Positions 1,270 through 35,487 are shown, counted from the first letter of the stretch. The stretch is 35,487 nt of DNA from an uncultured virus (IMG/VR IMGVR_UViG_3300039039_000012) (IMGVR_UViG_3300039039_000012); one strand, 5' to 3'. A program made the numbers and translations. The notes: a model not told the origin generated them from the sequence alone.

Positions 1270-1413
1270 ACTCCCCGTGGAGGATGATAGTGTTGTTGAA
1301 TTAGTTAAAGCTAGTCTTCATTTGCTATTCATTTTTATCCATTTTGTTACAGGGTTTTATATTTGTTTGTTTAGAGTTAAATACATTGATGATAATCATC
1401 CTCTACTCGGAGT
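1270..1413. repeat. inverted pair of GC-rich dispersed motif (copies 1 and 2)
   Basis: ACTCCCCGTGGAGGATG 1270-1286 and degenerate CATCCTCTACTCGGAGT 1397-1413. Confidence 0.85.
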
Positions 1414-1432
1414 TTATTTTAAATATATTATT

Positions 1433-1612
1433 ATGGAAAGAACTGATATTTATTTTGTTGAAGATGATACAAGTTTCAATAATAATGTTGAAGGTGTTGA
1501 AATTCATGCAGAATGTCTAAGTCAAGATTATGATGACATTGCTTGGGAACCAACAATTGATGATACTCCTGCTGTTGATCCTGAAAATGATATTTTTGGT
1601 TATTACGATTAA
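1433..1612 (+). CDS. small highly acidic protein (59 aa)
   Basis: ATG1433 after an AT-rich leader; MERTDIYFVEDD...DIFGYYD. The GTG1277 start in the ORF track falls inside the repeat motif. Confidence 0.7.
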   Translation: MERTDIYFVEDDTSFNNNVEGVEIHAECLSQDYDDIAWEPTIDDTPAVDPENDIFGYYD

Positions 1613-1627
1613 TTAAATGTTTGTATT

Positions 1628-2179
1628 ATGAATTATAATGAAATTTTTGCAAGTTGTATTATGTCTGAATTACATAACGAAGCCGATTTATCAAAAAGTT
1701 GTGAATATTGTAAAGAATTAGCTGATTTTAGTGAAGCTATTAAAGGTAAAGGTTTATCTAGTAAAGAATATGCTCTAGCTATTAATTTATTTAGTTTTGT
1801 TTATAGAGAAAAACATCATGTTGAATCTTTTGGTAATACTAGAGAAAGTGTTATTGAATATGCTCTTGATAATTTTCAAATAGATTGGTTAGTAAGACGT
1901 TGGGATAACGTAATTAAATCTAAGGATGAACTTAAAAATGTTATTGCTGTTCTTCCTCAAAGTTTTAAAAATATTATTGTTGATATTGTTGATACGCAAT
2001 CTCTTATTAATCATAATATTGCTGAATATCTTATTAAAACTTCTGAAGAAGAATCAATTGAAATAAGTAAGATGCTTATTCCTACTACAGATAATGAAAA
2101 TAAACTTAAACACTTTACTGAAAATGAACTTATAGAAGAACTTAAACGTAGAGAAAAAGAACGAATTGCTACAAAATAA
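1628..2179 (+). CDS. hypothetical protein
   Basis: 183-aa ORF, typical codon bias; C-terminal 'LKHFTENELIEELKRR' tail. Confidence 0.85.
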   Translation: MNYNEIFASCIMSELHNEADLSKSCEYCKELADFSEAIKGKGLSSKEYALAINLFSFVYREKHHVESFGNTRESVIEYALDNFQIDWLVRRWDNVIKSKDELKNVIAVLPQSFKNIIVDIVDTQSLINHNIAEYLIKTSEEESIEISKMLIPTTDNENKLKHFTENELIEELKRREKERIATK

Positions 2180-2205
2180 TTAATAATCCCATTTTAGATA
2201 CTATG

Positions 2206-2502
2206 GTCTGTGAAGATAGTAGTATTATTTCACTTGCTGATGATGGAGGAATTGAACTCCGAAACTATGATATTGTTATTATCCGTTTTAATTTCTAAAA
2301 TTGTAGGTTTTGTAATAGTACGGTCTGTGAAGATAGTGCTATTAATATTTATCATAGTCCAAGTGTTATATGTCATATTTGATTTGGTGTTAATGATGTT
2401 ATTATTGATTGTGAAATTAGTAATAACAATGTCTGTATCAAACATTTCGTTTTATATGATTTCGTATTTGTAGATTTGCCTAGTATTGTCTGTGAAGATA
2501 GT
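2206..2502 (+). repeat. three exact 15-bp direct repeats GTCTGTGAAGATAGT
   Basis: copies at 2206-2220, 2323-2337, 2488-2502. Confidence 0.9.
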
Positions 2503-2550
2503 ACTAGGCTTTTTAGTATGTATATTATTAACTTTAAATATATAATTAAA

Positions 2551-2913
2551 ATGGATAATTTTGATTCTCTTATTTTTGATGGTCTATTAGATAGATACAT
2601 TGAAGAACAAGCTAAGTTTGAAAAAGGACAGGTAGTATATATGGAATATACTTATCAATATCATAATCAAACTAAACTTGGTGTTTGTGTTGGTATTGTA
2701 ACTGGAATTGGAGTTACTAAGGTTGAACGTACAATAGGTAATAATAAATATATTGATTATCCTATTGTATATACTGTTACTCACGCTAAAGGTGTTAGTT
2801 ATAATGTTAGTGAATGTAAACTTGGTTCTGTATCTGAACATATTCTTAAAGAACGTCTTAAACGTGATGGTAAGAATAATGAACAGAATAATGAGGCTGA
2901 ACAGAATGGCTAG
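2551..2913 (+). CDS. hypothetical protein (possible SH3/KOW-like beta fold)
   Basis: ATG2551 (MDNFDSLIFDG...) after an AT-rich leader, within ORF 2476-2913; fold is a guess from the 'FEKGQVVY...GIVTGI' pattern. Confidence 0.75.
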   Translation: MDNFDSLIFDGLLDRYIEEQAKFEKGQVVYMEYTYQYHNQTKLGVCVGIVTGIGVTKVERTIGNNKYIDYPIVYTVTHAKGVSYNVSECKLGSVSEHILKERLKRDGKNNEQNNEAEQNG

Positions 2914-2945
2914 TTATTCATAGTCTGACATGTTCATGGATATAA

Positions 2946-3028
2946 TTCTTTTGCCCTCTGTTGAATTTTCATATATAATCTGATTAATCTATCACGATTA
3001 ATATTGAGTTCAATACAGGGCAAAAGAA
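2946..3028. repeat. intergenic hairpin element, copy A
   Basis: arms TTCTTTTGCCCTCTGTTGAA 2946-2965 and TTCAATACAGGGCAAAAGAA 3009-3028 enclosing TGATTAATCTATCACG. Confidence 0.85.
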
Positions 3029-3071
3029 CTAGCTAATAAATGTTAAACTAAAAATTTAATACAGTTTTATT

Positions 3072-3644
3072 ATGAATTATATTGCTTATAAGAATATTGA
3101 TGGTACTATTACAACTGGATTTAAAGTTAAACTTTATGATATAGTTACTTTGAATACTGGTTATTGGAAAGATAAACTTGCTATTGTTCTATATATTAAT
3201 GAAGCTAAAAAACAAATTAAAGTTCGTATTATCGAATGTGGTATGGATTTAACTCTTAAAGTTAAAGATGTTCAATTTGTTAATCATAATAATAGAACTG
3301 CTGCTCGTTCTTATATTGATTTATGTAATAAACTATCTAAAGCCTTTCATGATAAATATACTGATAAACAGTATATAAAAAATAATTGGTTTACTGATAA
3401 GTTTATTATTAATGATGTAACTGCTACTACTATTGCCATAGGTATTGGTAAATATATTACTAATATTGATAGTGATAGATATTCTGTTAGTGCTATTATG
3501 TGGCTTAGTGATATTAAAGATTATATAGATGCTTTGCTTAAATATGGTGATTTTGATTTTGTTGCTAAGGCATTTAAAATCTATAATATTGCTGATACTA
3601 GATTTGAATTTATTCATAAACTTTATAATTATTTCTATGATTGA
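3072..3644 (+). CDS. hypothetical protein with KOW-like N-terminus
   Basis: 190-aa ORF; 'YDIVTLNTGYWKDKLAIVLYINEAKKQIKV' resembles a KOW motif. Confidence 0.8.
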   Translation: MNYIAYKNIDGTITTGFKVKLYDIVTLNTGYWKDKLAIVLYINEAKKQIKVRIIECGMDLTLKVKDVQFVNHNNRTAARSYIDLCNKLSKAFHDKYTDKQYIKNNWFTDKFIINDVTATTIAIGIGKYITNIDSDRYSVSAIMWLSDIKDYIDALLKYGDFDFVAKAFKIYNIADTRFEFIHKLYNYFYD

Positions 3645-3897
3645 AGATGCTATTGGATATATTCTTGGAGTTTGTGTTGGATGTATTTTATTTCTTATTT
3701 ATGAAGTATTTAATCTATATAAGAAGATTGAACGAATTAATATAGATATTAATAAACTTCAAAATAAAGATATAGAATTTCATCGTAATATTGAATTTAT
3801 TATTAATGATAGTGAATATAATAAAGAAGTTCTTGAACATTTTATTGATAAACTTAATAAACTTAATGATAGTATTAAAGCGAAAGTTGATGACTAG
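3637..3897 (+). CDS. small membrane-anchored coiled-coil protein
   Basis: ATG3637 overlaps the upstream stop; N-terminal hydrophobic helix AIGYILGVCVGCILFLIY. Confidence 0.75.
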   Translation: MIEDAIGYILGVCVGCILFLIYEVFNLYKKIERINIDINKLQNKDIEFHRNIEFIINDSEYNKEVLEHFIDKLNKLNDSIKAKVDD

Positions 3898-3905
3898 CTT
3901 GCTTC

Positions 3906-3956
3906 CATCCTCTACGGGGGGTCGCCACGGAGCGTAGCGTAGTGGCTCTACTAATC
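3906..3956 (+). repeat. GC-rich motif copy 3 plus CGNAG x3 hairpin and CTACTAATC tail
   Basis: CATCCTCTACGGGGGGT 3906-3922; GCCA-CGGAG-CGTAG-CGTAG-TGGC 3924-3946; CTACTAATC 3948-3956. Confidence 0.9.
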
Positions 3957-4033
3957 TAACTATTATTGAATTTATTATAGTTTTAACTATTAAATATAAT
4001 TGTTTTATTAATCTTTAAAAATGTAAAGTACTT

Positions 4034-4366
4034 ATGAAAAAGTATGATGAAGTTTCTGTTGTTCGTCAACTTAATAATGTTGGCGCTGTTATTGGAATCA
4101 ATCCTGCTAGTAAAGTTATTAAAGTAGCTAAGAATAGTTCTATTGGTAATGGAACTAGTGGTAAGATTGATTTTCTTACTCATTATTGCGGTTATTATCT
4201 TGAATATGTTGATGTTATTCAACAACAAAAAGAACGTGATGAAGAAATTGCTGCTAAGAAAGCTGCTAAAAAGGCTGCTCGTAAAGCTAAATTTGCAGAG
4301 GATAATACTTTTAAAGGTATTACTCGTGCTGTTGATAAACGTATGCGTACTATTAAAAGAAAGTAG
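4034..4366 (+). CDS. hypothetical basic protein
   Basis: 110-aa ORF with Ala/Lys-rich helix. Confidence 0.85.
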   Translation: MKKYDEVSVVRQLNNVGAVIGINPASKVIKVAKNSSIGNGTSGKIDFLTHYCGYYLEYVDVIQQQKERDEEIAAKKAAKKAARKAKFAEDNTFKGITRAVDKRMRTIKRK

Positions 4367-4372
4367 TATGCT

Positions 4373-4846
4373 ATGGTTAGCTTTAAATTCTCATTTGGGG
4401 TTGTAGGTAAATCCAAAGAGAAAGGAATAGTCAATAAATATGTTATTATAGTTGCTAAATGTGAAGGTATTATTAGATATATTGATGGTACTTATAAAGT
4501 AGAATACAATGGCAAACTATATAGCATTACAGGTGAAAGTTACAGAACTAAAGGAAAGAAAGTTGTTTATGCTCGTCGATTAGATGAATATAATCATAGA
4601 ATTAAAATTATAAGAGATAGTGAAAATAGAAAAACTGTTGATACTAGATTTTATATTCCTTTTGCTGCTGGACTTATAGCTAAAGGTAAAATTGTTAAAA
4701 TGCCTTTTGCTAAGGAATTGTTTCATATTACTACGTGTTATAATCGTGGTGATAGTGAATCTACTATTTTAGCTTTTCAAGAATGGAAAGAATATGAAGA
4801 TAAAGTTAAAAATAATCTTATTGATATAAATAATGAATTGGAATGA
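4373..4846 (+). CDS. hypothetical protein
   Basis: 157-aa ORF, stop overlaps the helicase start (ATGA). Confidence 0.8.
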   Translation: MVSFKFSFGVVGKSKEKGIVNKYVIIVAKCEGIIRYIDGTYKVEYNGKLYSITGESYRTKGKKVVYARRLDEYNHRIKIIRDSENRKTVDTRFYIPFAAGLIAKGKIVKMPFAKELFHITTCYNRGDSESTILAFQEWKEYEDKVKNNLIDINNELE

Positions 4847-6303
4847 TTAGTAAACTAGAAATAGCTAATACTCCTAAGAAAGACAATAATATTACTTTTA
4901 CTAAAGACCAAGAAATTGCTGTGCATAAACTTATTGAGTTTCTTGCACAGCCTTGGGATGATAAGAAATATATTAATGCTCTTTGTGGTGCTGGAGGTAC
5001 AGGTAAGACATTTGTTATTAAATATGTTATTAATAATTGCAAATGGTCTTGTGGTGTTATAGGCTGTGCTGCTCCTACACATAAAGCTTGTAGAGTTCTT
5101 AGTAATTCTATTGGTGGAAAAGAAGTTAATACAATTCAATCATTGTTTGGTTTTAGACTTGATGTTAATATTGAAAATTTTGACCCTGAAAATCCTGCCT
5201 TTAATCCTGTTGGAAAAGATAAACTAGATGGTCTTAAAGTTTTAATTATTGATGAAGCTTCTATGCTTAATGCTAAACTTGTTAAGTATATTAGTAATAA
5301 ATGTAAGAAGCTTCAAATTAAAGTTATAATGCTTGGTGACTCTAGTCAGCTTCCACCTGTTAATGAGAAAACTAGTCAAGCTTTTCTTATTGCTAGTAAT
5401 ACTTATTATCTTAAAGAAGTTGTACGACAAGGAGATAATAATCCTATTAGTAAACTTCTTAAACTTCTTCGAGAAGATATAGATAATAAGAATGGATGGA
5501 GATTTCTTGATTATATATCTAAAAATAGACAAGATTATAATGAAGAAACTAAAGGATTTTATGTTTGTGGTCAAACTGAATTTTCTGATTTAATTGATAC
5601 TTGTTTTAATGATGAAGAATATACTAAAAATATTGATTTGTATCGTATTATAGCTTATACTAATAGTCGTGTTGCACAATGGAATAACCATGTAAGACAT
5701 ATGATTATTCAAGATGCTGATAAAAGTCTTATTACTCGTAACGATTTAATAATGAGTTATACTACTGTTGTTAATGTTTTTAATGATATTATTATAAACA
5801 ATAGTGAAGAATATATTGTTAAAGATATTGTTGATACAGTTGATAATGATTATGAGTTTAAAGGATTTCTTATTAAGTTTCAAGCTATTCATGGTGGAAC
5901 TATAACTCAACCTTTATTTGTTATTGACCATTATGATAACTATACATTTCAAATGTATTATAAGAAATTGACTAGTCTTATTGATGATGCTAAAAAAGCT
6001 AGTAGTTCTGAACGTGGAAGTAAATGGAAACAATATTTTGATTTTAAACGTAAATATCTTATCGCTTCTAATATTACGAATAGTAATGGTAAGATTTTAT
6101 TTAGTAGAGATTTAGATTATGGTTTTGCAATTACTTCTCATAGAGCACAAGGTTCTACTTATAAAAATGTATTTGTAGATATTAACGATATGATTTATGA
6201 TAAATATGGTCATCCTTATACTAATAGAGATGAAATGCTTCGTAGATTGTATGTTGCTTGTTCTCGCGCTAGTAATCAATTAGTATTATCTTATGGCAAG
6301 TAA
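4843..6303 (+). CDS. dda: SF1B Dda/RecD-like DNA helicase
   Basis: Walker A GAGGTGKT, APTHKA, IIDEASM, GDSSQLPPV, EVVRQ, FAITSHRAQGSTY, LYVACSRA. Confidence 0.92.
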   Translation: MISKLEIANTPKKDNNITFTKDQEIAVHKLIEFLAQPWDDKKYINALCGAGGTGKTFVIKYVINNCKWSCGVIGCAAPTHKACRVLSNSIGGKEVNTIQSLFGFRLDVNIENFDPENPAFNPVGKDKLDGLKVLIIDEASMLNAKLVKYISNKCKKLQIKVIMLGDSSQLPPVNEKTSQAFLIASNTYYLKEVVRQGDNNPISKLLKLLREDIDNKNGWRFLDYISKNRQDYNEETKGFYVCGQTEFSDLIDTCFNDEEYTKNIDLYRIIAYTNSRVAQWNNHVRHMIIQDADKSLITRNDLIMSYTTVVNVFNDIIINNSEEYIVKDIVDTVDNDYEFKGFLIKFQAIHGGTITQPLFVIDHYDNYTFQMYYKKLTSLIDDAKKASSSERGSKWKQYFDFKRKYLIASNITNSNGKILFSRDLDYGFAITSHRAQGSTYKNVFVDINDMIYDKYGHPYTNRDEMLRRLYVACSRASNQLVLSYGK

Positions 6304-6835
6304 AACTGTTGACGAATATCCTGATTGTGAAAGATGTCCAAATCGTATATTTAATACAGGTAAATATATACAAGGTGGTAGAGGAAGTATTCATGGAGAT
6401 GTTGTTTTCCTATTTCCTAGAGGTGATAGAGTTTATTGTGAAGGTTATCAATTATTTACTGATATTGGTAATCTTTATGATGAATATTCTGGACGTAATA
6501 ATACTGAAGATGTGTATATGACTTATAGTATTAAATGTGCTTGTTCTAATAATTATAATACATATCTTACTGCTATTGATAAATGTCGTAATATTCTATG
6601 GAAAGAATTAGCTAGAATTAATTATAAGTATCTATTTATATTTGGTGATGCTTATCTTAGTATTAGTAATAATCATATTCCTAGATTTATGGCTACTGGT
6701 GGTAAGTATATATTTAATAATTATTCTCCTCTTATTAAATTTAAAGATGATAATCTTTATCATATATTTAAACAGCGTTTTGCTGATGATGTTAATTGGG
6801 TTACTAAAAATAGAAATAATTATGGTATAATATAA
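6293..6835 (+). CDS. family-4 uracil-DNA glycosylase-like protein, degenerate active site
   Basis: CERC...G.G...VFL, 'YMTYSIKC', 'KCRNILWKEL', 'FIFG', 'NYSP' map onto the UDG-4 scaffold. Confidence 0.65.
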   Translation: MASKTVDEYPDCERCPNRIFNTGKYIQGGRGSIHGDVVFLFPRGDRVYCEGYQLFTDIGNLYDEYSGRNNTEDVYMTYSIKCACSNNYNTYLTAIDKCRNILWKELARINYKYLFIFGDAYLSISNNHIPRFMATGGKYIFNNYSPLIKFKDDNLYHIFKQRFADDVNWVTKNRNNYGII

Positions 6836-9163
6836 ATGATTAATTGTATAGCTTATGATGTTGAAGTTTTAAGAAATTTCTTTTCTGTTACTTTTGTTAG
6901 TATTAATAGTTATCTTAAAGTTTTTAAGGATTGTGTTAATGCTGATAATAAAGCTATTCCTTTAGTTCAAAAACTATCTGTTGAAGAAATTAAAGCTCGT
7001 CTTGAAACTGTTGAAAAACATAGTTTTCATATAACAGATAAAGATGATAGTCAATTACTTTCTATGATAGGTTATATTAATAAGACTAGATGTTATAAAG
7101 ATTCTAATGGAAATATTATTCGTACTGACTTGTATGGATTTAATAATTTCAATTATGATAATCTTATGATTGCTGCTTTACTTAGTTTTTATATGCGTAC
7201 GAATAGTACGAAAGAACTTATTAATAAGTTATATGAAACAAGTAAAACTATAATTAATAGTCAAAATGATAAAGATAGATTTAAAAATGATTTTTATCTT
7301 ACTAGTCTTAGAAAATATAAACTACCATTTACTGGTATTGATGTAATGAGAATATTTGCTCTTAACAAGGCAAGTTCTGTTATAGATAAGAAAACAGGAG
7401 AACGTAAATATGTTCCTAAAGGTCTTAAGCAAACTTCTATTAATCTTCAATGGTATGAACTTCTAGAATATGAACTTCCTAATATCAATGAAAAAGAAGC
7501 TGAACTATATAATAGTATTCCTAATCTTAAGGGGATGACTGTTCAACAACTTAATAAGTTTGTTGATAAGTGGGATAGATTTATTCTTGATGAATATATT
7601 GAACCTATGATGCATTATAATCTTAATGATGTTTTTATAGTTTGTGAAATTGTTCGTCTTTATCCTGAAGAAATTAAATCCAGATATGCTATTAGTAGAG
7701 CTTATGATGTAGACGTTCTTAATTCTAGTCGTAGTAAAACTGCTGATATTCTTTTTGAGAAGTTTTATAGTAAATTTAGTGGTCTTGCTCCTGAACAATG
7801 GAAAGGTAAGAAAACTGAAAGAACTGCTATGAGTTTTAAAAAAGTTATTTTTCCTTTTATTAAATTTAAAACTAAACCTATGCAAGATTTTCTTGATGAA
7901 TGTCTTAAAACTACTATTTATAGAGTTAATAAAGATGCGTTTAGTAAAGAAGTTAAAATTGGAAATGTAACTTATACTGTTGCTACTGGAGGTTTACATA
8001 GTCAAGATAATCCTATTGAATTATGGAGTAGTGGAAGAGAATTATTTCCATCCTCTACGGGGGGTCAACACGATGTTCTTAATGACGATGATTATGTTTA
8101 TATTCATGCTGATATTAATAGTATGTATCCTAGTATTATTGCTGCTCATAAAGTAGCTCCAGCTCATCTTGATACAAATGCTTTTTGTAATCTTATTGGT
8201 TGGCTTAAAAATAAGAGAGTTGAAGTTAAACACAGCGATGAAGATACTGTTGACGGAATTGATAGAGATACTTTAGCTTTAGTTTTAAAGATTGTTATTA
8301 ATTCTGTTTATGGTAAACTTGGATTTGAAAATGGTAATCTTTATGATAGATTAGCTGTACTTAAGACTACTATTAATGGGCAGTTAATGATGCTAATGTT
8401 GGTTGAGGAATTAGAGTTACACAATATTCATGTGTTAAGTGCTAATACAGATGGTATTGTTATTAAACTTTATAAACGAGATATTGATGTTTATAATCGT
8501 ATTAAAGATGATTGGGAACAAACTACTAAACTTAAGTTTGATACTGATTATTATCATTGTCTTGTTAGTAGAGATATAAATAATTATCTTAGCCAATTTA
8601 GAGTTATTAAAAATGGTGTTCATAAACTTAAGCTTGAATCTAAAGGTGCTCTTAATCCTATGATGTATTCTTTAGATTTAACTAAAGGTTATTCTATGCC
8701 TATTGTTGCTCAAGCTATTGAAAACTATTTTCTTAAGAATAAACCTGTAATGGATACTCTTCAAGAAGCTACTAATATTCTTGACTTTTGTCTTACTCAA
8801 AATGTAGGTAAACAATTTCATGTAGAAGAAACTAAGATTGAAAATGGACAAGTTGCTCATGTTGTTTGTCAAAGATATGTTAGATTTTATGTTTCTAATA
8901 GAGGATATATTATTGAGAAAGTTCATAATGATAACGGTTCTCGTAGTAGAATGGCGGCTGGTTCTGTTGTAACGGTTATTAATAGTCTTGATGATAAAGA
9001 TATTTCTCTTAGAGATATTAATTTTAAATTTTATTATCAAGAAGCTATGAAGATTATTAATCCTATTAAACTTAAGATTTCTCCTAAAGGTAAAGGTAAA
9101 AGTAAAATTAAAAAATATAGTGGTATGTATAATCCTATTTTTAATGAAGATGACTTTGGATGA
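6836..9163 (+). CDS. polB: family B DNA polymerase with 3'-5' exonuclease domain
   Basis: ExoI YDVE, ExoII GFNNFNYD, ExoIII YNLND; motif A DINSMYPS, motif B KIVINSVYG, motif C NTDG. Confidence 0.95.
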   Translation: MINCIAYDVEVLRNFFSVTFVSINSYLKVFKDCVNADNKAIPLVQKLSVEEIKARLETVEKHSFHITDKDDSQLLSMIGYINKTRCYKDSNGNIIRTDLYGFNNFNYDNLMIAALLSFYMRTNSTKELINKLYETSKTIINSQNDKDRFKNDFYLTSLRKYKLPFTGIDVMRIFALNKASSVIDKKTGERKYVPKGLKQTSINLQWYELLEYELPNINEKEAELYNSIPNLKGMTVQQLNKFVDKWDRFILDEYIEPMMHYNLNDVFIVCEIVRLYPEEIKSRYAISRAYDVDVLNSSRSKTADILFEKFYSKFSGLAPEQWKGKKTERTAMSFKKVIFPFIKFKTKPMQDFLDECLKTTIYRVNKDAFSKEVKIGNVTYTVATGGLHSQDNPIELWSSGRELFPSSTGGQHDVLNDDDYVYIHADINSMYPSIIAAHKVAPAHLDTNAFCNLIGWLKNKRVEVKHSDEDTVDGIDRDTLALVLKIVINSVYGKLGFENGNLYDRLAVLKTTINGQLMMLMLVEELELHNIHVLSANTDGIVIKLYKRDIDVYNRIKDDWEQTTKLKFDTDYYHCLVSRDINNYLSQFRVIKNGVHKLKLESKGALNPMMYSLDLTKGYSMPIVAQAIENYFLKNKPVMDTLQEATNILDFCLTQNVGKQFHVEETKIENGQVAHVVCQRYVRFYVSNRGYIIEKVHNDNGSRSRMAAGSVVTVINSLDDKDISLRDINFKFYYQEAMKIINPIKLKISPKGKGKSKIKKYSGMYNPIFNEDDFG
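8049..8065 (+). repeat. GC-rich motif copy 4 (inside polB)
   Basis: CATCCTCTACGGGGGGT, translated PSSTGG. Confidence 0.9.
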
Positions 9164-25476: not shown

Positions 25477-25479
25477 ACT

Positions 25480-26333: not shown

Positions 26334-26368
26334 TACAAAGATTAGTAGAACTAGTACAAAGATTAGTA
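26334..26368 (+). repeat. 14-bp direct repeat with 21-bp period (iteron-like)
   Basis: TACAAAGATTAGTA at 26334-26347 and 26355-26368. Confidence 0.8.
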
Positions 26369-26389
26369 TAATTTTTTATTCTATTAACA

Positions 26390-26417
26390 TTTGATATAGT
26401 TATATTTTTTATCTTTG
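26390..26417 (+). promoter_or_regulatory. probable host-type promoter of repL
   Basis: TTTG 26390-26393 and TATCTTTG 26410-26417 (16-nt spacer, shorter than usual). Confidence 0.55.
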
Positions 26418-26437
26418 GAATATAAAATTATATTCTT

Positions 26438-27004: not shown

Positions 27005-27008
27005 AAGT

Positions 27009-27057
27009 AAAAGGGCTTGTCTAGGTAGTGATACCATAGGCAAGCCCTTATTTTTTT
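27009..27057. terminator. bidirectional terminator between convergent gene blocks
   Basis: AAAAGGGCTTGTCTA-GGTA-GTGA-TACC-A-TAGGCAAGCCCTT-ATTTTTTT. Confidence 0.85.
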
Positions 27058-27075
27058 ACTAGATTCAAGTCCAAC

Positions 27076-30000
27076 TTATTCAAATATATCTTTAGCTATA
27101 TCTTTATAAGGTATAATACTAAGTATATTTTCATCAAGTTTATAATAACTATTATTATTAGGTAAATCAAGAACTCGATTAATACTACGAACAACAGGTA
27201 TATTACGAACAGCCATAACTTCAAACTTATTCATACCTTTATATCTACCAGTAGTATATTCCTCTGTGAAATCTTCTTCAATAAGGAATCTAGCAGCCAT
27301 AGCAGTAGTACCAATTAAGTCATTAATAGTTTGTCCAATAGCAACAGGACTAGACCATAGTTTTTTACCTTCAGCATAAGCACCAAATGGAGTAAATGAA
27401 GCAGCTTCAGAAGCAAGACGGTCAGCGTGATAAAGCATAAGATTATACATAATACTTTCATCATCATCACCTCCCATACCAGTTATAGCAATTGCTCCAA
27501 TAATGGCGGCTCCTACATAAAGTAAATCACCTAAATTACGTCTAATATTTGCTTTTTCATGTTCAGGAAGAAGTTCATAGTTAAGTTTGAAATTAACAGC
27601 AAATGAAAGTAAATTCTTACCATAAGTTTGGAATGCTTTAAGAACATCACTTACATTATTAACTTCTCCTACGTTACTTTCTTTAAATGGAATAGTCAAA
27701 TAATCATAAAGACTAGTATAACTACCTTTTTCAACAGTACCTAGAGTTTCATTATAATAACCATTCCAACGATAACGTTTCTTAAAACCAGGATAAAGAT
27801 GTTTATGATATTGCATAACCATACCACCCCACCAATGTTGTTCAATATTAGCAGAACCAAGTTTATCATAAACACCATGAACTTTCTTATTTACTTCACG
27901 AACTTTATCAATAAATTTAGCATATTCTTTAAGAGTAAGTTTACTATCAGATTTTATTTGAGCAATTCCATCTTTAAGTTCAAATTGATTATAAATATCT
28001 GGAAGTTTAGCAAACTTTTTATCAATATTTTTAATAAGTTCTTTACGTTTAGCTATATATTCTCTTTGTTGTTCTTCATTAAGATAAGTCTTAACAAAAT
28101 CGAATATAGGATTAGCTTTAAATAGATTATATTTAGCTCGTTTTTTATTATCAGCTTTAGCTTCATCCATGAACTTATTGAATTGTTCAAGTAGAGCTTG
28201 GTTCTCTCCTCCACGGGGAGTATTTATTACAGACATAAGAGCATCTTGTTCAGCTTTACGATGATACATTTCTTTACTCATTATATCATAACCACCTCTA
28301 CCATTATCAACAAGTCTATGAGATTTAAGCATAGCAAATAGCATAACATTTTGCATATAATGTTCACCAACAGATTGAGGACTAAATAGTAATCCACGAA
28401 CTCTACGAATATTTTCTCTAAGACCTTCAGCAGTACTAACTTCAGTTACTCTATCAAAATCAACTACATGACTAAGTTTAATAATAGCATCTTGAAGTGT
28501 ACTACTATTTTCACTATACATATTAGCCATATAACTAACAGTTCCTTTAATCCATTCAGATTTACCAGCTTCCCAATCTTTAAGATTAATATATTCACCA
28601 GCAGCTCGTTCCATAAATATATTACTAGAACCAGTAAGAACGTTAGCAATACCACCAGTTATATTCATCATCATATATTTACTACCAGCAATATTCTGAG
28701 CAAGAGAACCTAGTTTAACTAGATTAGGAGTTTTATTATCTTTATATTGTTCAAATACAAGACGACGTATAAAACTTCTAAGATGTTCACTAGTTCTAGT
28801 TTGTTTTTCTTGTTTATATTCAATTTCTCCACCAGCACTAGCTTCTCTATTTTCAGTTATACTACCTTTATAATTTATATCATAAGCAGTATTACTAGTA
28901 ATAATTTGGTCAGCAGTATAAAGAAGATTTTTAACTGTTTTAATAGCATTATATCTATTACTTTCAATTAAGAAACTATTAAATACTTCTTCCCAATTAC
29001 GATTAAGAATATCATTATGAATCTTATTATTCTTTTCAATAATTTCATCTCTAGCTTTAATTGCAGCAGCTTTACGTTTACTAAATTCTTCATCACTTTC
29101 ATTAGGTTCTTTAAATCTAGGTATAGTAGGAAGTTGTTGAGTATCTTTATTAACTAACTGAACTAATCTAGGATTAGGAATATCATAATCTTTATCAAAA
29201 GTTAAATCTTCATTATTTCTCCAACTAGTATTATTAGGAACATTGGCTGTCCAACCAAGAAAACTAAGAGCTTGTTCAAAGTAATCTTTAACAGTCATAT
29301 CTTTAGATTTAGGTAAAGCTGGAAGATAACCCATATCAACATATCTCTTATTACTATTAGTAAAACAATACTTTTTCATAAGTTCATTTACTTTATTCAT
29401 AAGTTCAAGTTGATACTCATTAAGATTAGTATAATTAGGATTATCATATCCTGTTCCTATTTTGTACTTATTAACAAAACTACTATATTCTGGATTAACA
29501 AGTTCTTCTTTAGGAGTAATGTGCATTTGATTAATACGTGGTTCATAATTACCAACAACAGCTGAACCATCATCTTTAATCATTTGCATAGTAGTCCAAA
29601 TACGAATAGGTTTAATAGTACGAGTGTAAGGGTCAAAATAATGATTATCTCTATACCATTGTTTATATTCAATACTATCAATACCATATTTGTCAAGAAC
29701 TTCTCTTTCTTTCATATAATAATATTGAGTAGTAGTTTCTCTAGTTCTCTTTTGAAGAATATTAATTGCAGCAGTTCTATCAATATCAGTCCATTTATCT
29801 AAATCTTTAGGTTTAATAATACCATAAATAGTTCGATTAGGTCTTTCTGCAATAGTTCCATTTTCTTCAACTTGTTCACTAAATACTTCTAGCCATTTAT
29901 CATAATACTTTTTACCTTTAGTAAAAGCTCTATTTTTATCAAGTTCATATTGTTTCCAATTATAAGTAACATCACATTCACTTTCAATAAATTCAGCAAC

Positions 30001-33000
30001 ACGTTTTGCTTTATCTTTATCAGTACTCTTTTCACCTCTAGTAATTTCATTAAATACTTCAAAACCAGTCTTGAGTTGTTCTAAATCTTCTTGACTAATA
30101 TCAGCAGTATTAAGAGTTCTAGTAGCATTATCAAAATATTTTTCAAGTATTTTATTAATAGCTTCTCCTACATTAATTTCTTCTTCGCTCTTAGATTTAT
30201 TACCTGTAAGATAATTATAAAAATCAGCACGATAAATTCTTAATTCATCTTCAGCAGAACGAATAATACCAACATAAGGCATACCATTACCTTTAGTATA
30301 TTTATATTTTCTAACTGTTTCAGCTTTTATAAGAGCTGCACGTTCTTCAGGTATTTTACGTCCATCAACTACGTTAAATTCATCTTTAGCTTGAAATTCT
30401 CTAATAGCAAGATTAAGAACACTATTACCTTTATTAGCGTCTTTAAGTTCTTCAAATGCCCAATTTAAATCTTCTATATCTTTAATATCAAGAATATATC
30501 TAGTATTCTTACGAATCCATTCTTTAGCTTCACGATATTCAGGAACTTTCATAAGTTCTTCCATACTAATAAGAAGATTACCATTAGCATCACGTTGACT
30601 TTCATATTTACTAATAATAGAAAGTTGTTCTTTAAGTTTAGAATCAAATCCTTCTTTAGCTTGCTTATCATAGAACATTTCTTTAATTTTACGAATATTA
30701 GTTTGATAAGCACGAAGTCTTTCAGCTACATTTAAATCATGACCAATTTTTTTATTACCATCTTCATCGTAAAGACTAGTAAGACTATCCATTTGAGCGT
30801 ATATACGTCCAAGTTCTTCATCTTGACTTTGCGTAGTAACATTATCAGTAGCTTGACTTAGAATATCTCGTATTCTACCATTAAGTCTTTTATATTCAGC
30901 AAATTCTTTAGGAATACCATCATCTCCTTTTTTAAGTCCTAATAAACTTCTTTCAAGATTTATAATATAAGTAGAATATTCAATAGTAATATTATTACCA
31001 TCTTCATCTTGAACAGTAATTGGTTTAAGATGATGAATAGTAGTCATATCAATAAATTTAGCTTTATTAGATAAAGCAATAAGATGTTCAACACTATTAA
31101 TACCAAATTTTTGTTCAGCTTCAATGGCAGCATCTCTATATTTCTTCATCTTTTCTTCCCAAATAGGATTATTAGGTTGAATTAATCTACCATCATCATC
31201 AATTATACTATCAAGACTAACAGATTTACCATCTTTAGCAGCTCTAGATTTAAGTTCTTTAAGATAATTTCTAAAGTCATTAGATTCTTTAATACCATTA
31301 AGACGACCTTCTTCAACAGTACCCATTACATCTTTAAGTATATTTTGCAATACAAAGTTACGATTAGCACGAATATCTTGTATCCAATAGTCCATAAATC
31401 CAGTATCTCCATAAGCATCAAATTCTTTCATAAGACCACTTATATAATTAGGATTAGTAGTACGTAATTGAATCCATCTTTCAAACCAATCTTTTCTAGC
31501 AGAATGTACAGTAGTATTAGAATCAACTTGATTAACTAGTTTCTGAATCTTTCTAATATTCTCTTTAGTTTTATCATCAAGATTTGTACTATCAATATCA
31601 ATTTCGCTAATAAGTTTGTATTTATTCTTAAATGTATTAGCACTAAGAATAACATCTAAGAAACGATTTTGAAGTTGTTCATCTTTAAGAACTTTACTAA
31701 TAACATCTTTATCGTTAATAGGTTTATCAATACCGTCAATTTTAATAAAACGATTAATATCATTAAGAATATTATTAGCTTCAACATCTATATAATTAGC
31801 TATAACTGATAATGAAAATTCAGAATTATCAGAAAGACTACTACTATCAAGATAGTTAATTTCAGCATTATTTAAAGCATTAAGAACATTTTGAGCAGCA
31901 GGTTGACCATGACGAACAGCACGAGAAATAACTAAACTAGCATTTTTAGCAAATCTACCAATAGGAGTTTGGTCATCAACACTACTATATCTATCAGTAT
32001 TACTAGTAACTCTATTTATTTCATTTTCATTAATTTCAATAAATAATCCAAGTTTATTATCTTCAATATTAGGATATTTAGCTTTATATTGTTTTAAATC
32101 ATCACTTAAATTAATAGCAGTAGTTCCATTAATATTAAGATAAAATTTATCATTAATAGTATATATAGTATTATTCTCAAAAGGAGTATTCATAAAAGGC
32201 TGGAAATACTCATCAGATATATATTTACTATATAGTTCAGGAACTTCTTTATAACCTTTATTTACAGCTTCATTAATATTATCTTTAATACCATCAATAA
32301 ACTTATCTCTTTTTTCTTGTTGAGTAAGACCATCATAAAGGAGAACAGCTAATGGTTTATGAATATTATTATTAGCTATAATACTAGGCTCAATACTATT
32401 ATAAGTTTCAAATGATTCAAGTCTATCAATAGGATAATAAGCTAAAGTTCCATCATAAGTTCCTTTAATATATAAATTTCTATTAATTCTAATAACATTA
32501 ACAGCATCTCCATTTCTTATTATTCCTACATTATCAAGATTTTCTTGACCATTAAAAGTAATAATACCACTTCTTTTTAGACTATAATTAATTTTATTAT
32601 TAGTAAGTCTTTTAAATGTATAACTAGGACAATTAAAACTATTATAATTCTTACGAATAAAACCAATTATATCTTCAACATTATCTTTATCAACAAAACC
32701 ATAACTATTAATACCTTTCATAGCTATATCTCCAATAGCTATTCCGCCCTCACTCAATCCTCTAAGGGGAGTATTACTTATAAGTCTACTAATATTTCTA
32801 GTTCTAAATTTATGACCTTCAACAATAAAAGCATATTTAACTAAATCAAGAGCTGTAAGTTTAATAAGAGGATTGGGATGATTCCAAGCTCTATCAAACA
32901 ATCTATGGGCTTCATCATTAGTAATATCACCTTGTATGTAATTAATATATTGAATATTTACATTACGACGATTATTTCTTTCATCATTAGCAACTATTTC

Positions 33001-35487
33001 AATATGCTCAAATACACTACCATCTTGACTAAAGTTACGTTTAATCCAATCAACTTTCTGAGCAGGAGTAAGTCTAGCAAATACATCAATTTCAGTTTGT
33101 GTAGGTTCAAATATATTTTTAACTACAACATCATCAGTTTTAATATTAACTAATGTACCACTAACTCTACCAACTTCTAAAGCTCTAGATTGACCAGTAC
33201 CATATTCTTTAATATATTTAGGATGAACAAAATCACCATTAACAATAGTAACAGGTAAATTAAGATAAGAACTACCATTATTACCTACTTCTAGTTTATT
33301 AATAAGATAATCTTTATAATCATTATATAACTTTTCAGTCATTATTCCACCTTTAGTCCATTCTGCTATTCTATACACATAATCAATAAATACAGGATTA
33401 GCAGTTTCAAATACTTGTTGAGTAGCTTTAACACTAAGAGCAGTACTCATTTGTAAAAATGCCGCTAAACTAGGATAACTACTTTTAGATATATCTGATT
33501 TAATAAACGCATCTATACCACCGCTAATATCAGGAAAGACACTCTCTAGCAACAAGGTTTGACCCCCCGTAGAGGATGGAGCATAAATATTACTATTCTC
33601 AATAACAGTTCTAGCATCTCTAAATACTTTATCACTAGCATAAAAACTTTGTTTAGCACCATATTTATCAGCACTAAGAATATTAAGATTATTACTTATA
33701 TCCTGTCCGATTGAGTTTAACCGATTGAATTGTGCTAGAACATAAAGGTCAAATAAAGCCTGCTGAACGCCATTCATTTCCCCTCTAAGACGAGATTTAT
33801 ATGCGTCTGATGAAAATATAAGGTCAGGTGATGAAAATGCTTCAGAAACGCTTAAATTGAATATTTTCTTGAAAGTTTCACCATAACTTTCATTAATAAT
33901 ATCAATTAGCTTTTTACGTCCAGCAAAATTAACTTTTTCACCAAAACCAAGACTATGAGCAACTTCTCTAATAGCTTCAGTAAGCGGATTTTTAGTACCT
34001 TCTGCAAGAACACTATTAGTTTCTTTCCATTTACGAACTAGTATGTCAATAGCAGGTTGCCACATAAATCCAATAGCAGTATCATAATTACTTCCAAAGT
34101 CAACAATAGTTTTAAAAGCATTAAACGTATAAGTATTTTCATTATGTATAGCTCCCTCTTTCATAACATCAAGAATATGAGCAGTAGTCTGAGAACTATA
34201 AGGATTAATCAAATAACCATCAACATTCTTATCATCTCCAGACCAACCAAAATTCTTATGAGTAATACGAATATGTTTATTACCAATAGTTTCAACATTT
34301 TCTTTACCATATCTATTAACAGCTTCTTGCTCACTAATCACATCAGTAGTGTACATAACTTTAATACCTTCACTATGATTAGCTTTAGTAACATTACCAA
34401 TACTCATAAAAGTATCTCGATTAACACTGATACCTTTAAGTTTAATACCAGAAGTAGCAGCATCAAACCAATCAAGTTGAGTAAAGAAATCACTAGGAGC
34501 AACAGTTGTTTTATTAGCACCAACTATTTCTGCATAAGTTTCATTAGCTTCTTTGACATTTTCAAAATTAGAAGTAGTAGTATTTTCTTCAAATGCAGCA
34601 GGATTATTAAGTATATCAATAAATGATTGAATAATAGCATTAGTTCTAGCAGCTTGACTACTTGTATCCTCCACGGGGAGTTTCAAGTATGATTCGTAAG
34701 ACTTAAGTCCACCATCATTAGCAATTTTTTCAACAACTTTAAGATTACCATTATAACCTTCAAGAGTAGCATTAATAGCATCTTCGCTATTTTTTAAAGA
34801 AGCTCTAATATTACCTTGTTTATTATAAGTTTTACCAAGAATCTTACGACTAGCTTTATCTACATTATCTTTAACATAATTAATATATCCTACTTCATCT
34901 TTAGTATATCTAGAGTGAGTAATTTCAGTTGGAATACCTTTAACAAGATTAAATGTTTTAGACATACCATAAACACTATCAACGTCAAAGTCAGAACCAG
35001 TTTGAGTAACCCATTCATCAGGAACAACAACAGTACTACCATAGGCATCTGGAAGAAACTCCTTAACATACATAATACATATAGATTGCTTACCTTCAGT
35101 AGGAATACGATAACCAATCATAGTACGTAAGCTATCAGGAACTTGTTCAATATTTAATCCTTTAAGTTTACTACTCCATCTAGGAAGTTTAATTTCAGTA
35201 TAATAAACAGGAGTGCCATCAACTTCTCCAATCTTTTTATATTGAAGTTTACTATCTGTTTGAGTTTGTTTATCAACTTTAAACCCAAAGTCAGATAGCT
35301 GAGCAGCATGCCATCCACTAATAAGTTGTCTAGTAATATTAGTATTAAAATAACTATTAGCAATACTTTCAAGTTTACTATTAATATTAGACAAAAATAA
35401 AGGAAGATTATTAAATCCAGCACTATCTAAATCAAAAAATTCAAGAAGAGCTTTCTCAACTCCTTGTTGTTGAGCATTTTCTTTAAA
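27076..35487 (-). CDS. giant virion-packaged two-barrel DNA-dependent RNA polymerase (5'-truncated)
   Basis: frame is open to the window edge (2803 codons before the stop); GYRIPTEG and catalytic GSDFDVD (34978-34992) as in crAss-like vRNAPs. Confidence 0.9.
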   Translation of the reverse strand, partial: FKENAQQQGVEKALLEFFDLDSAGFNNLPLFLSNINSKLESIANSYFNTNITRQLISGWHAAQLSDFGFKVDKQTQTDSKLQYKKIGEVDGTPVYYTEIKLPRWSSKLKGLNIEQVPDSLRTMIGYRIPTEGKQSICIMYVKEFLPDAYGSTVVVPDEWVTQTGSDFDVDSVYGMSKTFNLVKGIPTEITHSRYTKDEVGYINYVKDNVDKASRKILGKTYNKQGNIRASLKNSEDAINATLEGYNGNLKVVEKIANDGGLKSYESYLKLPVEDTSSQAARTNAIIQSFIDILNNPAAFEENTTTSNFENVKEANETYAEIVGANKTTVAPSDFFTQLDWFDAATSGIKLKGISVNRDTFMSIGNVTKANHSEGIKVMYTTDVISEQEAVNRYGKENVETIGNKHIRITHKNFGWSGDDKNVDGYLINPYSSQTTAHILDVMKEGAIHNENTYTFNAFKTIVDFGSNYDTAIGFMWQPAIDILVRKWKETNSVLAEGTKNPLTEAIREVAHSLGFGEKVNFAGRKKLIDIINESYGETFKKIFNLSVSEAFSSPDLIFSSDAYKSRLRGEMNGVQQALFDLYVLAQFNRLNSIGQDISNNLNILSADKYGAKQSFYASDKVFRDARTVIENSNIYAPSSTGGQTLLLESVFPDISGGIDAFIKSDISKSSYPSLAAFLQMSTALSVKATQQVFETANPVFIDYVYRIAEWTKGGIMTEKLYNDYKDYLINKLEVGNNGSSYLNLPVTIVNGDFVHPKYIKEYGTGQSRALEVGRVSGTLVNIKTDDVVVKNIFEPTQTEIDVFARLTPAQKVDWIKRNFSQDGSVFEHIEIVANDERNNRRNVNIQYINYIQGDITNDEAHRLFDRAWNHPNPLIKLTALDLVKYAFIVEGHKFRTRNISRLISNTPLRGLSEGGIAIGDIAMKGINSYGFVDKDNVEDIIGFIRKNYNSFNCPSYTFKRLTNNKINYSLKRSGIITFNGQENLDNVGIIRNGDAVNVIRINRNLYIKGTYDGTLAYYPIDRLESFETYNSIEPSIIANNNIHKPLAVLLYDGLTQQEKRDKFIDGIKDNINEAVNKGYKEVPELYSKYISDEYFQPFMNTPFENNTIYTINDKFYLNINGTTAINLSDDLKQYKAKYPNIEDNKLGLFIEINENEINRVTSNTDRYSSVDDQTPIGRFAKNASLVISRAVRHGQPAAQNVLNALNNAEINYLDSSSLSDNSEFSLSVIANYIDVEANNILNDINRFIKIDGIDKPINDKDVISKVLKDEQLQNRFLDVILSANTFKNKYKLISEIDIDSTNLDDKTKENIRKIQKLVNQVDSNTTVHSARKDWFERWIQLRTTNPNYISGLMKEFDAYGDTGFMDYWIQDIRANRNFVLQNILKDVMGTVEEGRLNGIKESNDFRNYLKELKSRAAKDGKSVSLDSIIDDDGRLIQPNNPIWEEKMKKYRDAAIEAEQKFGINSVEHLIALSNKAKFIDMTTIHHLKPITVQDEDGNNITIEYSTYIINLERSLLGLKKGDDGIPKEFAEYKRLNGRIRDILSQATDNVTTQSQDEELGRIYAQMDSLTSLYDEDGNKKIGHDLNVAERLRAYQTNIRKIKEMFYDKQAKEGFDSKLKEQLSIISKYESQRDANGNLLISMEELMKVPEYREAKEWIRKNTRYILDIKDIEDLNWAFEELKDANKGNSVLNLAIREFQAKDEFNVVDGRKIPEERAALIKAETVRKYKYTKGNGMPYVGIIRSAEDELRIYRADFYNYLTGNKSKSEEEINVGEAINKILEKYFDNATRTLNTADISQEDLEQLKTGFEVFNEITRGEKSTDKDKAKRVAEFIESECDVTYNWKQYELDKNRAFTKGKKYYDKWLEVFSEQVEENGTIAERPNRTIYGIIKPKDLDKWTDIDRTAAINILQKRTRETTTQYYYMKEREVLDKYGIDSIEYKQWYRDNHYFDPYTRTIKPIRIWTTMQMIKDDGSAVVGNYEPRINQMHITPKEELVNPEYSSFVNKYKIGTGYDNPNYTNLNEYQLELMNKVNELMKKYCFTNSNKRYVDMGYLPALPKSKDMTVKDYFEQALSFLGWTANVPNNTSWRNNEDLTFDKDYDIPNPRLVQLVNKDTQQLPTIPRFKEPNESDEEFSKRKAAAIKARDEIIEKNNKIHNDILNRNWEEVFNSFLIESNRYNAIKTVKNLLYTADQIITSNTAYDINYKGSITENREASAGGEIEYKQEKQTRTSEHLRSFIRRLVFEQYKDNKTPNLVKLGSLAQNIAGSKYMMMNITGGIANVLTGSSNIFMERAAGEYINLKDWEAGKSEWIKGTVSYMANMYSENSSTLQDAIIKLSHVVDFDRVTEVSTAEGLRENIRRVRGLLFSPQSVGEHYMQNVMLFAMLKSHRLVDNGRGGYDIMSKEMYHRKAEQDALMSVINTPRGGENQALLEQFNKFMDEAKADNKKRAKYNLFKANPIFDFVKTYLNEEQQREYIAKRKELIKNIDKKFAKLPDIYNQFELKDGIAQIKSDSKLTLKEYAKFIDKVREVNKKVHGVYDKLGSANIEQHWWGGMVMQYHKHLYPGFKKRYRWNGYYNETLGTVEKGSYTSLYDYLTIPFKESNVGEVNNVSDVLKAFQTYGKNLLSFAVNFKLNYELLPEHEKANIRRNLGDLLYVGAAIIGAIAITGMGGDDDESIMYNLMLYHADRLASEAASFTPFGAYAEGKKLWSSPVAIGQTINDLIGTTAMAARFLIEEDFTEEYTTGRYKGMNKFEVMAVRNIPVVRSINRVLDLPNNNSYYKLDENILSIIPYKDIAKDIFE
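28205..28221 (+). repeat. GC-rich motif copy 12 (inside vRNAP)
   Basis: TCTCCTCCACGGGGAGT, translated TPRGG. Confidence 0.85.
32756..32772 (+). repeat. GC-rich motif copy 13, one core mismatch (inside vRNAP)
   Basis: AATCCTCTAAGGGGAGT, translated TPLRG. Confidence 0.7.
33562..33578 (-). repeat. GC-rich motif copy 14 (inside vRNAP)
   Basis: ACCCCCCGTAGAGGATG, translated PSSTGG. Confidence 0.9.
34665..34681 (+). repeat. GC-rich motif copy 15 (inside vRNAP)
   Basis: TATCCTCCACGGGGAGT, translated LPVED. Confidence 0.85.

Follow-up and report, generated by a model that had tools for sequence, protein, structure and literature searches.

A short GC-rich word, TCCTCYACGGGGRGT, is dispersed in 15 copies through the 35,487 bp of DNA from the uncultured virus IMGVR_UViG_3300039039_000012 that were analysed here (the window), and it belongs to a signal found throughout the crAss-like phage family Intestiviridae. 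The word is constrained as nucleic acid and not as protein, its copies are evenly spaced along each DNA strand whatever the direction of the genes, and they have been gained and lost by point changes and not by insertion. Whatever reads the word tracks one strand along the whole genome, is phage-specific and co-evolves with it. We tentatively favour a role in RNA-primed DNA synthesis, as a strand-specific start or loading signal whose reader would be the phage primase or the virion RNA polymerase (vRNAP), which depends on single-stranded DNA (ssDNA).

Over bases 1–20000, the window is 90–92% identical to Carjivirus communis BK010471 (p-crAssphage) and its strains. The G+C content is 26–32% over 35.5 kb; the + strand of the window encodes the replication module, and its - strand the beginning of the giant vRNAP gene. 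The near relatives used were contig 1 of G001 (97,134 bp) and the viral record G002 (95,554 bp, with direct terminal repeats). The annotated BK010471, 19 IMG/VR loci around polB and ten other crAss-like GenBank genomes were also compared.

Conservation of the word

Thirteen exact and two near copies of TCCTCYACGGGGRGT are present in the window, and none was found in 100 dinucleotide-preserving shuffles that provided the random expectation (mean 0, maximum 0). The exact copies start at 1270(-), 3908(+), 8051(+), 9645(-), 15334(+), 16863(-), 22073(-), 22102(+), 25747(-), 25845(+), 28207(+), 33562(-) and 34667(+), and the near copies at 1399(+), with 2 mismatches, and 32758(+), with 1 mismatch. 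A first-pass annotation of this DNA had reported 15 dispersed copies, 13 of them exact, and the same count was recovered here. Its + strand starts lie 2 bases earlier because a frequent CA prefix was counted. Among the relatives, 32 copies within one mismatch were counted in G001, every one of them on the phage contig and none elsewhere in its 2.3-Mb bin, while G002 has 31 copies within one mismatch and BK010471 has 33 within two mismatches.

Copy positions are constant in all strains, and the Y and R letters vary between strains at a given site. Comparison with three strains gave an identity of 98.1% over the 15 motif positions, against 90.9% and 93.4% over the 15 nt on either side and 92–95% over the whole genome. 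Within the motif, only Y6 (86%) and R13 (95%) vary. In BK010471, 12 of the 33 copies lie in the approximately 6% of the genome that is non-coding and 21 are in genes, where 11 are sense, 10 are antisense and five of the six reading frames are used. The absent frame is the one that reads TAG when Y is T.

The proteins of BK010471 were aligned with the genome of Delmidovirus cr110_1, which has 32 copies in 89.8 kb. The alignment spans 14 of the 21 coding copies, leaving seven unaligned, and for eight of the 14 the two genera agree in both the site of the copy and its orientation with respect to the gene. These eight are in polB, the SNF2 gene, the primase gene, the ligase gene, the vRNAP gene (residue 1536), gp45 and gp50 (two copies), in proteins that are only 31–60% identical and with indels in the flanks. 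The primase copy is read in different frames, as ILYGGS in Carjivirus and PLRGVS in Delmidovirus, and so is a copy in gp50 (TPRGG and SPVED, respectively). Antisense copies have also been retained across the genera, in the SNF2 gene, the ligase gene, the vRNAP gene (residue 1536) and gp50. Within polB, an 83%-identical allele has the exact word between unrelated flanks, and in a polB of 56% identity the corresponding position is occupied by TCTTCTACGGGGGAT. Thus, as the first-pass annotation had proposed from the use of several frames, the constraint acts on the nucleic acid and not on the protein: both orientations are used, identity in the motif exceeds that of its flanks, and copies are retained between genera despite a change of frame.

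The polB region is itself variable. When the IMG/VR loci L053–L059 were compared with window positions 6836–9163, two polB allele classes were seen in the species, with protein identities to the window of approximately 95% and 83%. Around the polB copy, the sequence is unrelated between the allele classes and the word is identical.

Origin of the copies

The first-pass annotation had also raised the possibility of a micro-element resembling repetitive extragenic palindromes (REPs), and a comparison of intragenic copies with their orthologues speaks against this. Six alignable copies of BK010471 are missing in Delmidovirus, and five of them align without a gap. At vRNAP residue 823, where the protein reads ILYG(G/R)S, Carjivirus has ATC CTC TAC GGG GGG and Delmidovirus ATT CTT TAT GGT CGT, and this copy arose through synonymous changes alone. 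The gap-free alignments and the synonymous site indicate that selection acting on point changes, and not insertion, accounts for the gain and loss of copies.

A selfish or REP-like element that spreads by copying itself into genes would account for a GC-rich word present many times in an AT-rich genome, for copies that sit in variable protein loops (16–32 informative single-nucleotide polymorphisms within 60 nt of four coding copies, with 14 expected), for the genus-specific copy at vRNAP residue 3690, which adjoins a 7-residue gap in the orthologue, and for the GC-rich add-ons beside 7/33 copies, two of them genic. It does not account for the five of six genus-specific coding copies that lack an insertion, one of which differs only synonymously, nor for positions that are stable within the species and between genera (8/14), nor for the regular same-strand spacing, which is unlike random insertion. 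Furthermore, no transposase or RAYT-like protein was found when 48 of the 88 proteins annotated in BK010471, with no large structural proteins among them, were scanned against Pfam, and no bacterial genome with multiple copies is among the 80 listed of at least 126 matched stretches in a scan of 185,579 species' genomes for the core. The selfish-element explanation is therefore largely refuted, and we regard it as nearly excluded.

In the same scan, and among the 80 stretches listed, unrelated genomes gave single chance matches to the core and multiple copies were found only on crAss-like contigs, several of them approximately 89–98 kb and others short contigs of one bin. On this basis the word does not look like a host signal, though the host genome itself was not identified. 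The 97-kb crAssphage contig of G001 had been binned into a 2.3-Mb bacterial metagenome-assembled genome (MAG), and similar contigs of approximately 98 kb are found in MAGs labelled Clostridia, Clostridiales and Mycoplasma. These phage contigs in bacterial MAGs look like binning artefacts rather than evidence of a host.

Family-wide distribution and lineage-specific spellings

The core YYYYY-TAC-GGG(G) is present in 15–37 copies in each of eight complete Intestiviridae genomes that span all three subfamilies, with approximately one copy expected from base composition. Counted in its generic form (four pyrimidines, YAC, GGG), the core occurs 31 times in BK010471 (Carjivirus), 37 times in cr110_1 (Delmidovirus), 32 times in cr3_1 (Diorhovirus), 28 times in cr8_1 (Fohxhuevirus), 19 times each in cr271_1 (Hacihdavirus), ctcc615 (Wotdevirus) and ctbg_1 (Whopevirus), and 15 times in crAss002 (Jahgtovirus). 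Outside the family, cr127_1 (Crevaviridae) and crAss001 (Steigviridae) have no copies and cr55_1 (Suoliviridae) has one. The 3′ tail is lineage-specific, taking forms such as GGGGRGT, GGGGGAGCT, GGGGGAA and GGGCCAG, as expected if the tail co-evolves with a phage-encoded reader.

Other repeated words were seen in the genomes outside the Intestiviridae. The cultured Steigviridae phage crAss001 (MH675552), from which the TACGGG word is absent, has 29 copies of CTTCTGGAG, 79-fold over expectation. The 18 on the - strand are evenly spaced (coefficient of variation (CV) of the gaps 0.46, P=0.0003), and the + strand has 11 (P=0.08). It is possible that crAss001 spells a signal of this kind differently. 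Crevaviridae cr127_1 (MT774393) has nine copies of a repeat of approximately 45 nt that consists of the core GGCCACAAGGGCG followed by agaggtgttccg, and Suoliviridae cr55_1 (MT774376) has 31 copies of TTACTYTGG that are not evenly spaced.

Spacing on each strand

Copies on the same strand are evenly spaced, approximately 5–8 kb apart. On the - strand of BK010471 (n=18) the gap CV is 0.31, and none of 20,000 random placements was as even; on the + strand (n=15) it is 0.55 (P=0.012). The two strands of cr110_1 have CVs of 0.32 (P<5e-5) and 0.56 (P=0.015), and same-strand spacing in G001 and G002 is similar to that in BK010471. When the generic core was used, at least one strand reached P<=0.001 in seven of the eight complete Intestiviridae genomes. 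The smallest same-strand gap in BK010471 is approximately 1.9–2.1 kb, above chance (P 0.007 and under 0.001), and it is at least 1.5 kb in G001 and G002, while cr110_1 has one gap of 437 bp. With both strands pooled, spacing is far less even (CV 0.66–0.84). The first-pass annotation had contrasted the mixed orientation of the copies with polar sites such as Chi and the FtsK-orienting polar sequences (KOPS); the orientation is indeed mixed, but on either strand by itself the copies form a regular tiling.

In the large late gene block the well-tiled strand is the coding one, and its tiling does not stop at the early block, which has the opposite orientation. Because it is unbroken across a block that is transcribed in the opposite direction, local transcription is not the reader. 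Copies on opposite strands also lie close together. A - copy is found within 500 bp of 7/15 + copies in BK010471 (P=0.008) and of 7/16 in cr110_1 (P=0.02), compared with approximately 2.8 in shift controls, and this is what stations serving both strands would look like. Tight opposite-strand pairs in BK010471 (29–120 bp apart) include 22898(-)/22927(+) and 28074(-)/28172(+). The intergenic pairs are divergent, and one pair flanked by GC-rich add-ons lies upstream of each RepL gene. All four single intergenic copies in BK010471 are sense to the flanking genes and 16–54 nt past the upstream stop codon. Over the eight genomes, 114 copies are sense and 86 antisense.

Anatomy and folding

Across 199 copies from the eight genomes TACGGG is invariant, with positions -5 to +4 (pyrimidines, A-C-G-G-G) fixed by the search pattern itself, such that the near-constant T at -1 (92%) is the sole informative position in that span. 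Position -6, which is not forced by the pattern, is a pyrimidine in 98% of copies. The pyrimidine-rich tract continues from -15 to -7, where the pyrimidine fraction is 0.51–0.72, compared with a mean of approximately 0.39 further upstream (0.30–0.53 at single positions there).

As ssDNA, single copies fold with approximately -1 kcal/mol and z-scores of +0.4 to +0.8, no better than shuffled sequence, and a DNA hairpin was rejected as the functional form of single copies. Only inverted pairs fold as DNA (z -7.8 and -10). As RNA, the motif strand can form a 6-bp stem with a UACG loop (-6.2 to -7.1 kcal/mol, 57–76% of the ensemble), while its complement reaches -3.2 kcal/mol; weak z-scores (-1.2 to 0) were obtained for single copies, and a stem of 5–6 pairs is possible only with G-T or G-U wobbles. 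The fold TCCCC-GTR-GAGGA that the first-pass annotation had assigned to one strand belongs to the weaker strand (-0.5 kcal/mol as DNA, -3.2 as RNA) and does not amount to a meaningful single-copy DNA hairpin.

Directly 3′ of 7/33 Carjivirus copies there is a GC-rich add-on of 24–31 nt; only 1.9% of 36-nt windows are as GC-rich. In BK010471, these add-ons adjoin the copies at 6021, 28074, 28172, 44950, 58724, 93664 and 95864. They consist of AGCG repeats, which in several cases flank a small stem closed by a GAA, GTA or GAAA loop. Two are genic (gp45 and gp50), and the extra residues are absent from the Delmidovirus gp50 orthologue. No add-on of the AGCG type was found in cr110_1.

A proposed priming or loading signal

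If the word starts or loads RNA-primed DNA synthesis, a machine encoded by the phage would read it on one DNA strand while moving along the entire genome. Recognition would depend on the invariant 3′ part (A-C-G-G-G and the lineage-specific tail), and the 5′ pyrimidine tract of approximately 6 to 15 nt, in which C and T are interchangeable, would be the stretch copied to give a purine-rich primer. The reader would be either the DnaG-family primase, together with the phage single-stranded DNA-binding proteins (SSBs), or the ssDNA-dependent vRNAP acting as a primase. An enzyme that needed a long word would oblige each strand to carry stations at regular intervals, and selection would then write words into coding sequence where spacing required them. 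We infer that the replisome is the reader and the pyrimidine tract the template from the arrangement of the word: an invariant 3′ word beside a 5′ pyrimidine tract is how a template site where RNA synthesis starts is laid out, and lagging-strand priming by a highly sequence-specific enzyme would call for stations at regular intervals on both strands. The first primer nucleotide laid down by primases is a purine, paired with a pyrimidine in the template, and a 'cryptic' nucleotide on the 3′ side is also recognised (T7 GTC, Escherichia coli CTG). The genomes are annotated with a DnaG-family primase and two or three SSB genes. For the crAss-like vRNAP, a study (10.1101/2020.03.07.982082) states that it transcribes ssDNA and not double-stranded DNA, and that no early promoter motif was found for it.

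Several points weigh against a priming or loading signal. The genome of crAss002 carries the word, yet neither of its strands is significantly even, and GC skew tracks gene direction and so provides no independent fork direction. No Pfam match was obtained for the primase-annotated gp21, which was sought within the scan of BK010471 proteins, and the primase assignment therefore rests on the record's own annotation. To our knowledge, primases need only 3–5 nt and a word of 10–25 nt would be unprecedented. The same anatomy would also fit a template-strand promoter or a nick site.

It is also possible that the copies are programmed single-strand interruptions cut by a phage nickase, though we consider this unlikely. 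Nick sites would be consistent with a word that is asymmetric, strand-specific, present on both strands, conserved among relatives and spelled according to lineage, and with copies on each strand that are distributed independently of those on the other. The nick consensus sequences of phiKMV-like phages (…CCTA/CTCCGG) and of phage tf (TACT/RTGMC) likewise contain a pyrimidine-rich stretch, TA(C) and a G-rich stretch. However, apart from the HNH endonuclease of the dUTPase intron, no HNH, GIY-YIG, HUH or topoisomerase IB domain was found in the 48 proteins scanned, opposite copies 29–120 bp apart would produce staggered double-strand breaks if both were nicked, and even spacing is not a property of nick sites that we know of. 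Nor does linkage drop across copies. In an alignment of 23 strains over window positions 1–20000, reduced to 22 when L048 was dropped as a duplicate of G002, mean r2 was 0.436 across seven copies and 0.458 across controls. The same comparison lent no support to a recombination hotspot, with four-gamete fractions of 0.276 at the seven copies and 0.305 at 313 controls, though its power is low. A topoisomerase IB pentapyrimidine site, to which the word bears some likeness (CCCTT/TCCTT), was rejected in the absence of such a domain from the proteins scanned.

Less likely again are duplex-DNA sites for a blocking or organising phage protein, either as roadblocks to RNA polymerase travelling either way in a quiescent plasmid-like state or as anchors of genome organisation. 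Approximately 30 asymmetric sites per genome with lineage-specific spelling, the enrichment of copies in non-coding DNA (12/33 in approximately 6% of the genome) and the position of the four single intergenic copies, all sense and shortly after a stop codon, would suit such a protein, and C. communis is described as a phage-plasmid in PMC10983915. Against it are the 21/33 copies in genes, divided almost equally between sense (11) and antisense (10), and the uneven pooled spacing and common tight opposite-strand pairs, where an anchor should be spaced regardless of orientation. No repressor candidate is known, and RepL, the obvious DNA binder, was not detected in the ten other crAss genomes by a search that may lack sensitivity. 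An RNA hairpin with a 6-bp stem of C-G and G-U pairs and a UACG tetraloop, which would stabilise, pause or mark very long transcripts from both strands, is more doubtful still. Its stability on the motif strand exceeds that of the complement, C/T exchange opposite G fits G-U pairing, sense copies outnumber antisense copies (114 to 86) and one Diorhovirus copy has an extended stem (-18.9 kcal/mol, z -3.9), but the z-scores of single copies are weak, no compensatory double changes were seen and any Y-run that faces a G-run will pair as a trivial consequence. In Whopevirus the spelling GGGC disrupts the stem, and in the tetraloop register a C-A mismatch affects half of the Carjivirus copies. Antisense copies have been retained between genera, and the loop and G-run are more invariant than a plain hairpin requires. 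A priming or loading signal is therefore favoured, followed by nick sites, then duplex roadblocks or organisers, and then an RNA hairpin.

The signal is present in the most abundant human-gut phage and in its whole family. Approximately 30 sites per genome are under very strong selection and must therefore mark a core process, be it replication priming, nicking or silencing. The word explains why certain peptides (SSTGG, LPVED, TPRGG) recur in unrelated proteins, and it provides a lineage marker that should co-evolve with its reader, and a concrete sequence that is testable in cultured members such as crAss002, C. communis and, with its own spelling, possibly crAss001. It is conceivable, though we would not call it likely, that a crAss-family initiation enzyme, primase or vRNAP, starts only at a long lineage-specific word and so uses even priming stations on both strands, placed in essential genes through synonymous change. 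If this were true, the replication logic would be without known precedent in any other virus, and the long-missing recognition sequence of the crAss vRNAP or primase would be in hand.

Copies in the window

Eight of the 15 window copies are within genes, in four frames, with three sense and five antisense. This bears out the first-pass annotation, which had placed copies in polB, a helicase-like gene and the primase, ligase and vRNAP genes, except that the gene at 9645, going by the annotation of BK010471, encodes an SNF2-type ATPase and not a superfamily 1 helicase. The peptide readings it gave were also confirmed. The polB copy (8051–8065, + strand) is sense, is read as SSTGG and falls within a hypervariable linker shortly before polymerase motif A. 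The copy in the SNF2-type ATPase gene (9645–9659, - strand; open reading frame (ORF) 9160–10194) is antisense, is read as LPVEE and is kept in Delmidovirus, as is the antisense copy read as PPVED in the ATP-dependent ligase gene (16863–16877, - strand; ligase-like ORF 16621–17826). Between them, the DnaG-family primase gene (ORF 14415–15710) has a sense copy at 15334–15348 (+ strand) that is read as ILHGGS. Four copies are in the vRNAP gene. Those at 28207–28221 (+ strand, TPRGG), 32758–32772 (+ strand, TPLRG; the near copy with 1 mismatch) and 34667–34681 (+ strand, LPVED; kept in Delmidovirus) are antisense, and that at 33562–33576 (- strand, SSTGG) is sense.

The first two copies form a divergent pair, made up of an exact intergenic copy (1270–1284, - strand) and a degenerate copy, TCCTCTACTCGGAGT, with 2 mismatches (1399–1413, + strand). 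The degenerate copy is retained in BK010471 and in 3/5 related loci that span the site (L053, L054 and L058), and was not found within 2 mismatches in loci L056 and L057. It falls in a mechanically called ORF (1277–1612), and its BK010471 counterpart is between gp06 and gp07. The copy at 3908–3922 (+ strand) is intergenic and sense to the flanking genes, and is followed directly on its 3′ side by a GC-rich add-on with AGCG repeats (3923–3946, + strand). A second divergent inverted pair, 22073(-)/22102(+) (22073–22116), has a 14-bp spacer, lies between a Gam-like gene and the next gene, and folds as DNA into a 15-bp stem (-16 kcal/mol, z -7.75).

The third divergent inverted pair, 25747(-)/25845(+), has outer add-ons of AGCG repeats (25716–25746 and 25860–25883), the whole extending from 25716 to 25883. 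It lies in an ORF-free stretch of approximately 960 bp (25477–26437), approximately 0.6 kb upstream of a RepL-like ORF (26438–27004). The pair forms the ends of the arms of a 125-nt near-perfect inverted repeat (25741–25865; DNA fold -30.3 kcal/mol, z -10) that is near a sign change of GC skew. A similar pair is found 260 bp upstream of the second RepL gene of BK010471 (gp88), and the regions of these pairs are possible origins. RepL was considered as the reader of the word and rejected, as the Pfam RepL model found no match in the ten other crAss genomes, seven of which have the word; that search gave no first-look candidates and its sensitivity is uncertain. The long inverted repeat is also the reason for the only matches returned by an Rfam scan of the window, which were to plant microRNAs and below threshold (39 and 34 bits; gathering score 130). 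A tRNA scan of the window found no tRNA.

Between the copies at 22073 and 25747, the offset between the window and BK010471 shifts by approximately 1.5 kb (window approximately 23300–25500; BK010471 24167–25851). The dUTPase gene of BK010471 is split by an intron that encodes an HNH endonuclease, and the window probably carries an intron-less dUTPase allele. In contigs from RNA-library runs, joints or loose ends were seen at copies of the word (22126 to 33555; 15330/15355; 33555/33561; 16852; 22102), and one loose contig end runs into the flank of another copy. These probably reflect assembly or template switching at the repeated word.

Comparison with known systems

Searches of the literature on crAss motifs, promoters, nicks, origins and the word itself, with supplements outside their reach, returned no description of it, and no mention was found in the available portions of the C. 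communis phage-plasmid preprint, the PacBio crAssphage paper, the vRNAP preprint or the paper on crAss001 persistence. The genome-wide cis-acting system proposed in the first-pass annotation is upheld, and within the reach of these searches it appears not to have been described.

REPs and the mosaic elements that contain them (BIMEs) are also GC-rich and dispersed, with GTAG or GTGG on one strand. However, REPs are extragenic imperfect palindromes of 20–40 nt, whereas 21/33 copies in BK010471 and 8/15 in the window are genic, single copies are not palindromes and no RAYT was found among the proteins scanned. Mobile in-frame elements, such as the Rickettsia palindromic elements and mitochondrial GC clusters, differ in that 5/6 genus-specific copies of the word are present without a gap. 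Chi, KOPS and DNA uptake sequences resemble it as over-represented oriented oligomers imposed on coding sequence and used by a strand-tracking reader. They are 5–12 nt, host-encoded and abundant in the host chromosome, while the word is multi-copy only on crAss-like contigs among the stretches listed, and all 32 matches in G001 are on the phage contig. The single orientation per replichore of Chi and KOPS is not seen either, as both strands are tiled in both gene blocks.

The stoperators of Cluster A mycobacteriophages, like the word, number approximately 30 dispersed asymmetric sites, are enriched between genes and have a spelling that co-evolves with a phage protein. They are 13-bp asymmetric repressor sites, approximately 24–36 per genome, nearly all intergenic and in one direction relative to transcription, whereas 64% of the copies described here are genic (21, with 12 intergenic) and both orientations occur in both gene blocks. 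The hairpin promoters of the N4 vRNAP and the conserved 23-bp promoters of the T7 group also invite comparison: N4, too, has a virion RNA polymerase that works on a single-stranded template, and the promoters are either small stem-loops in which certain loop bases are specified or long words that have co-evolved with their polymerase. Those of N4 number three and are confined to one end of the genome, and those of T7 share a single direction, unlike the 31–33 copies of the crAss word on both strands genome-wide, for which the DNA hairpin is negligible. The nick consensus sequences of T5, phiKMV-like phages and tf are likewise asymmetric, strand-specific, common to related phages and obscure in function, and these phages have 4–14 sites with no reported regular spacing.

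The closest likeness to the favoured reading is in primase sites and G4-type initiation signals, which are read on one ssDNA strand, have an invariant 3′ part beside a copied 5′ part, are needed on both strands at intervals and are specific to the lineage of the enzyme. Known primase sites are either 3–5 nt (T7 gp4 5′-GTC, E. coli DnaG 5′-CTG) or single origins with hairpins of over 50 nt (phage G4). The crAss word differs from both in being 10–25 nt long and tiled approximately every 5–8 kb within genes.

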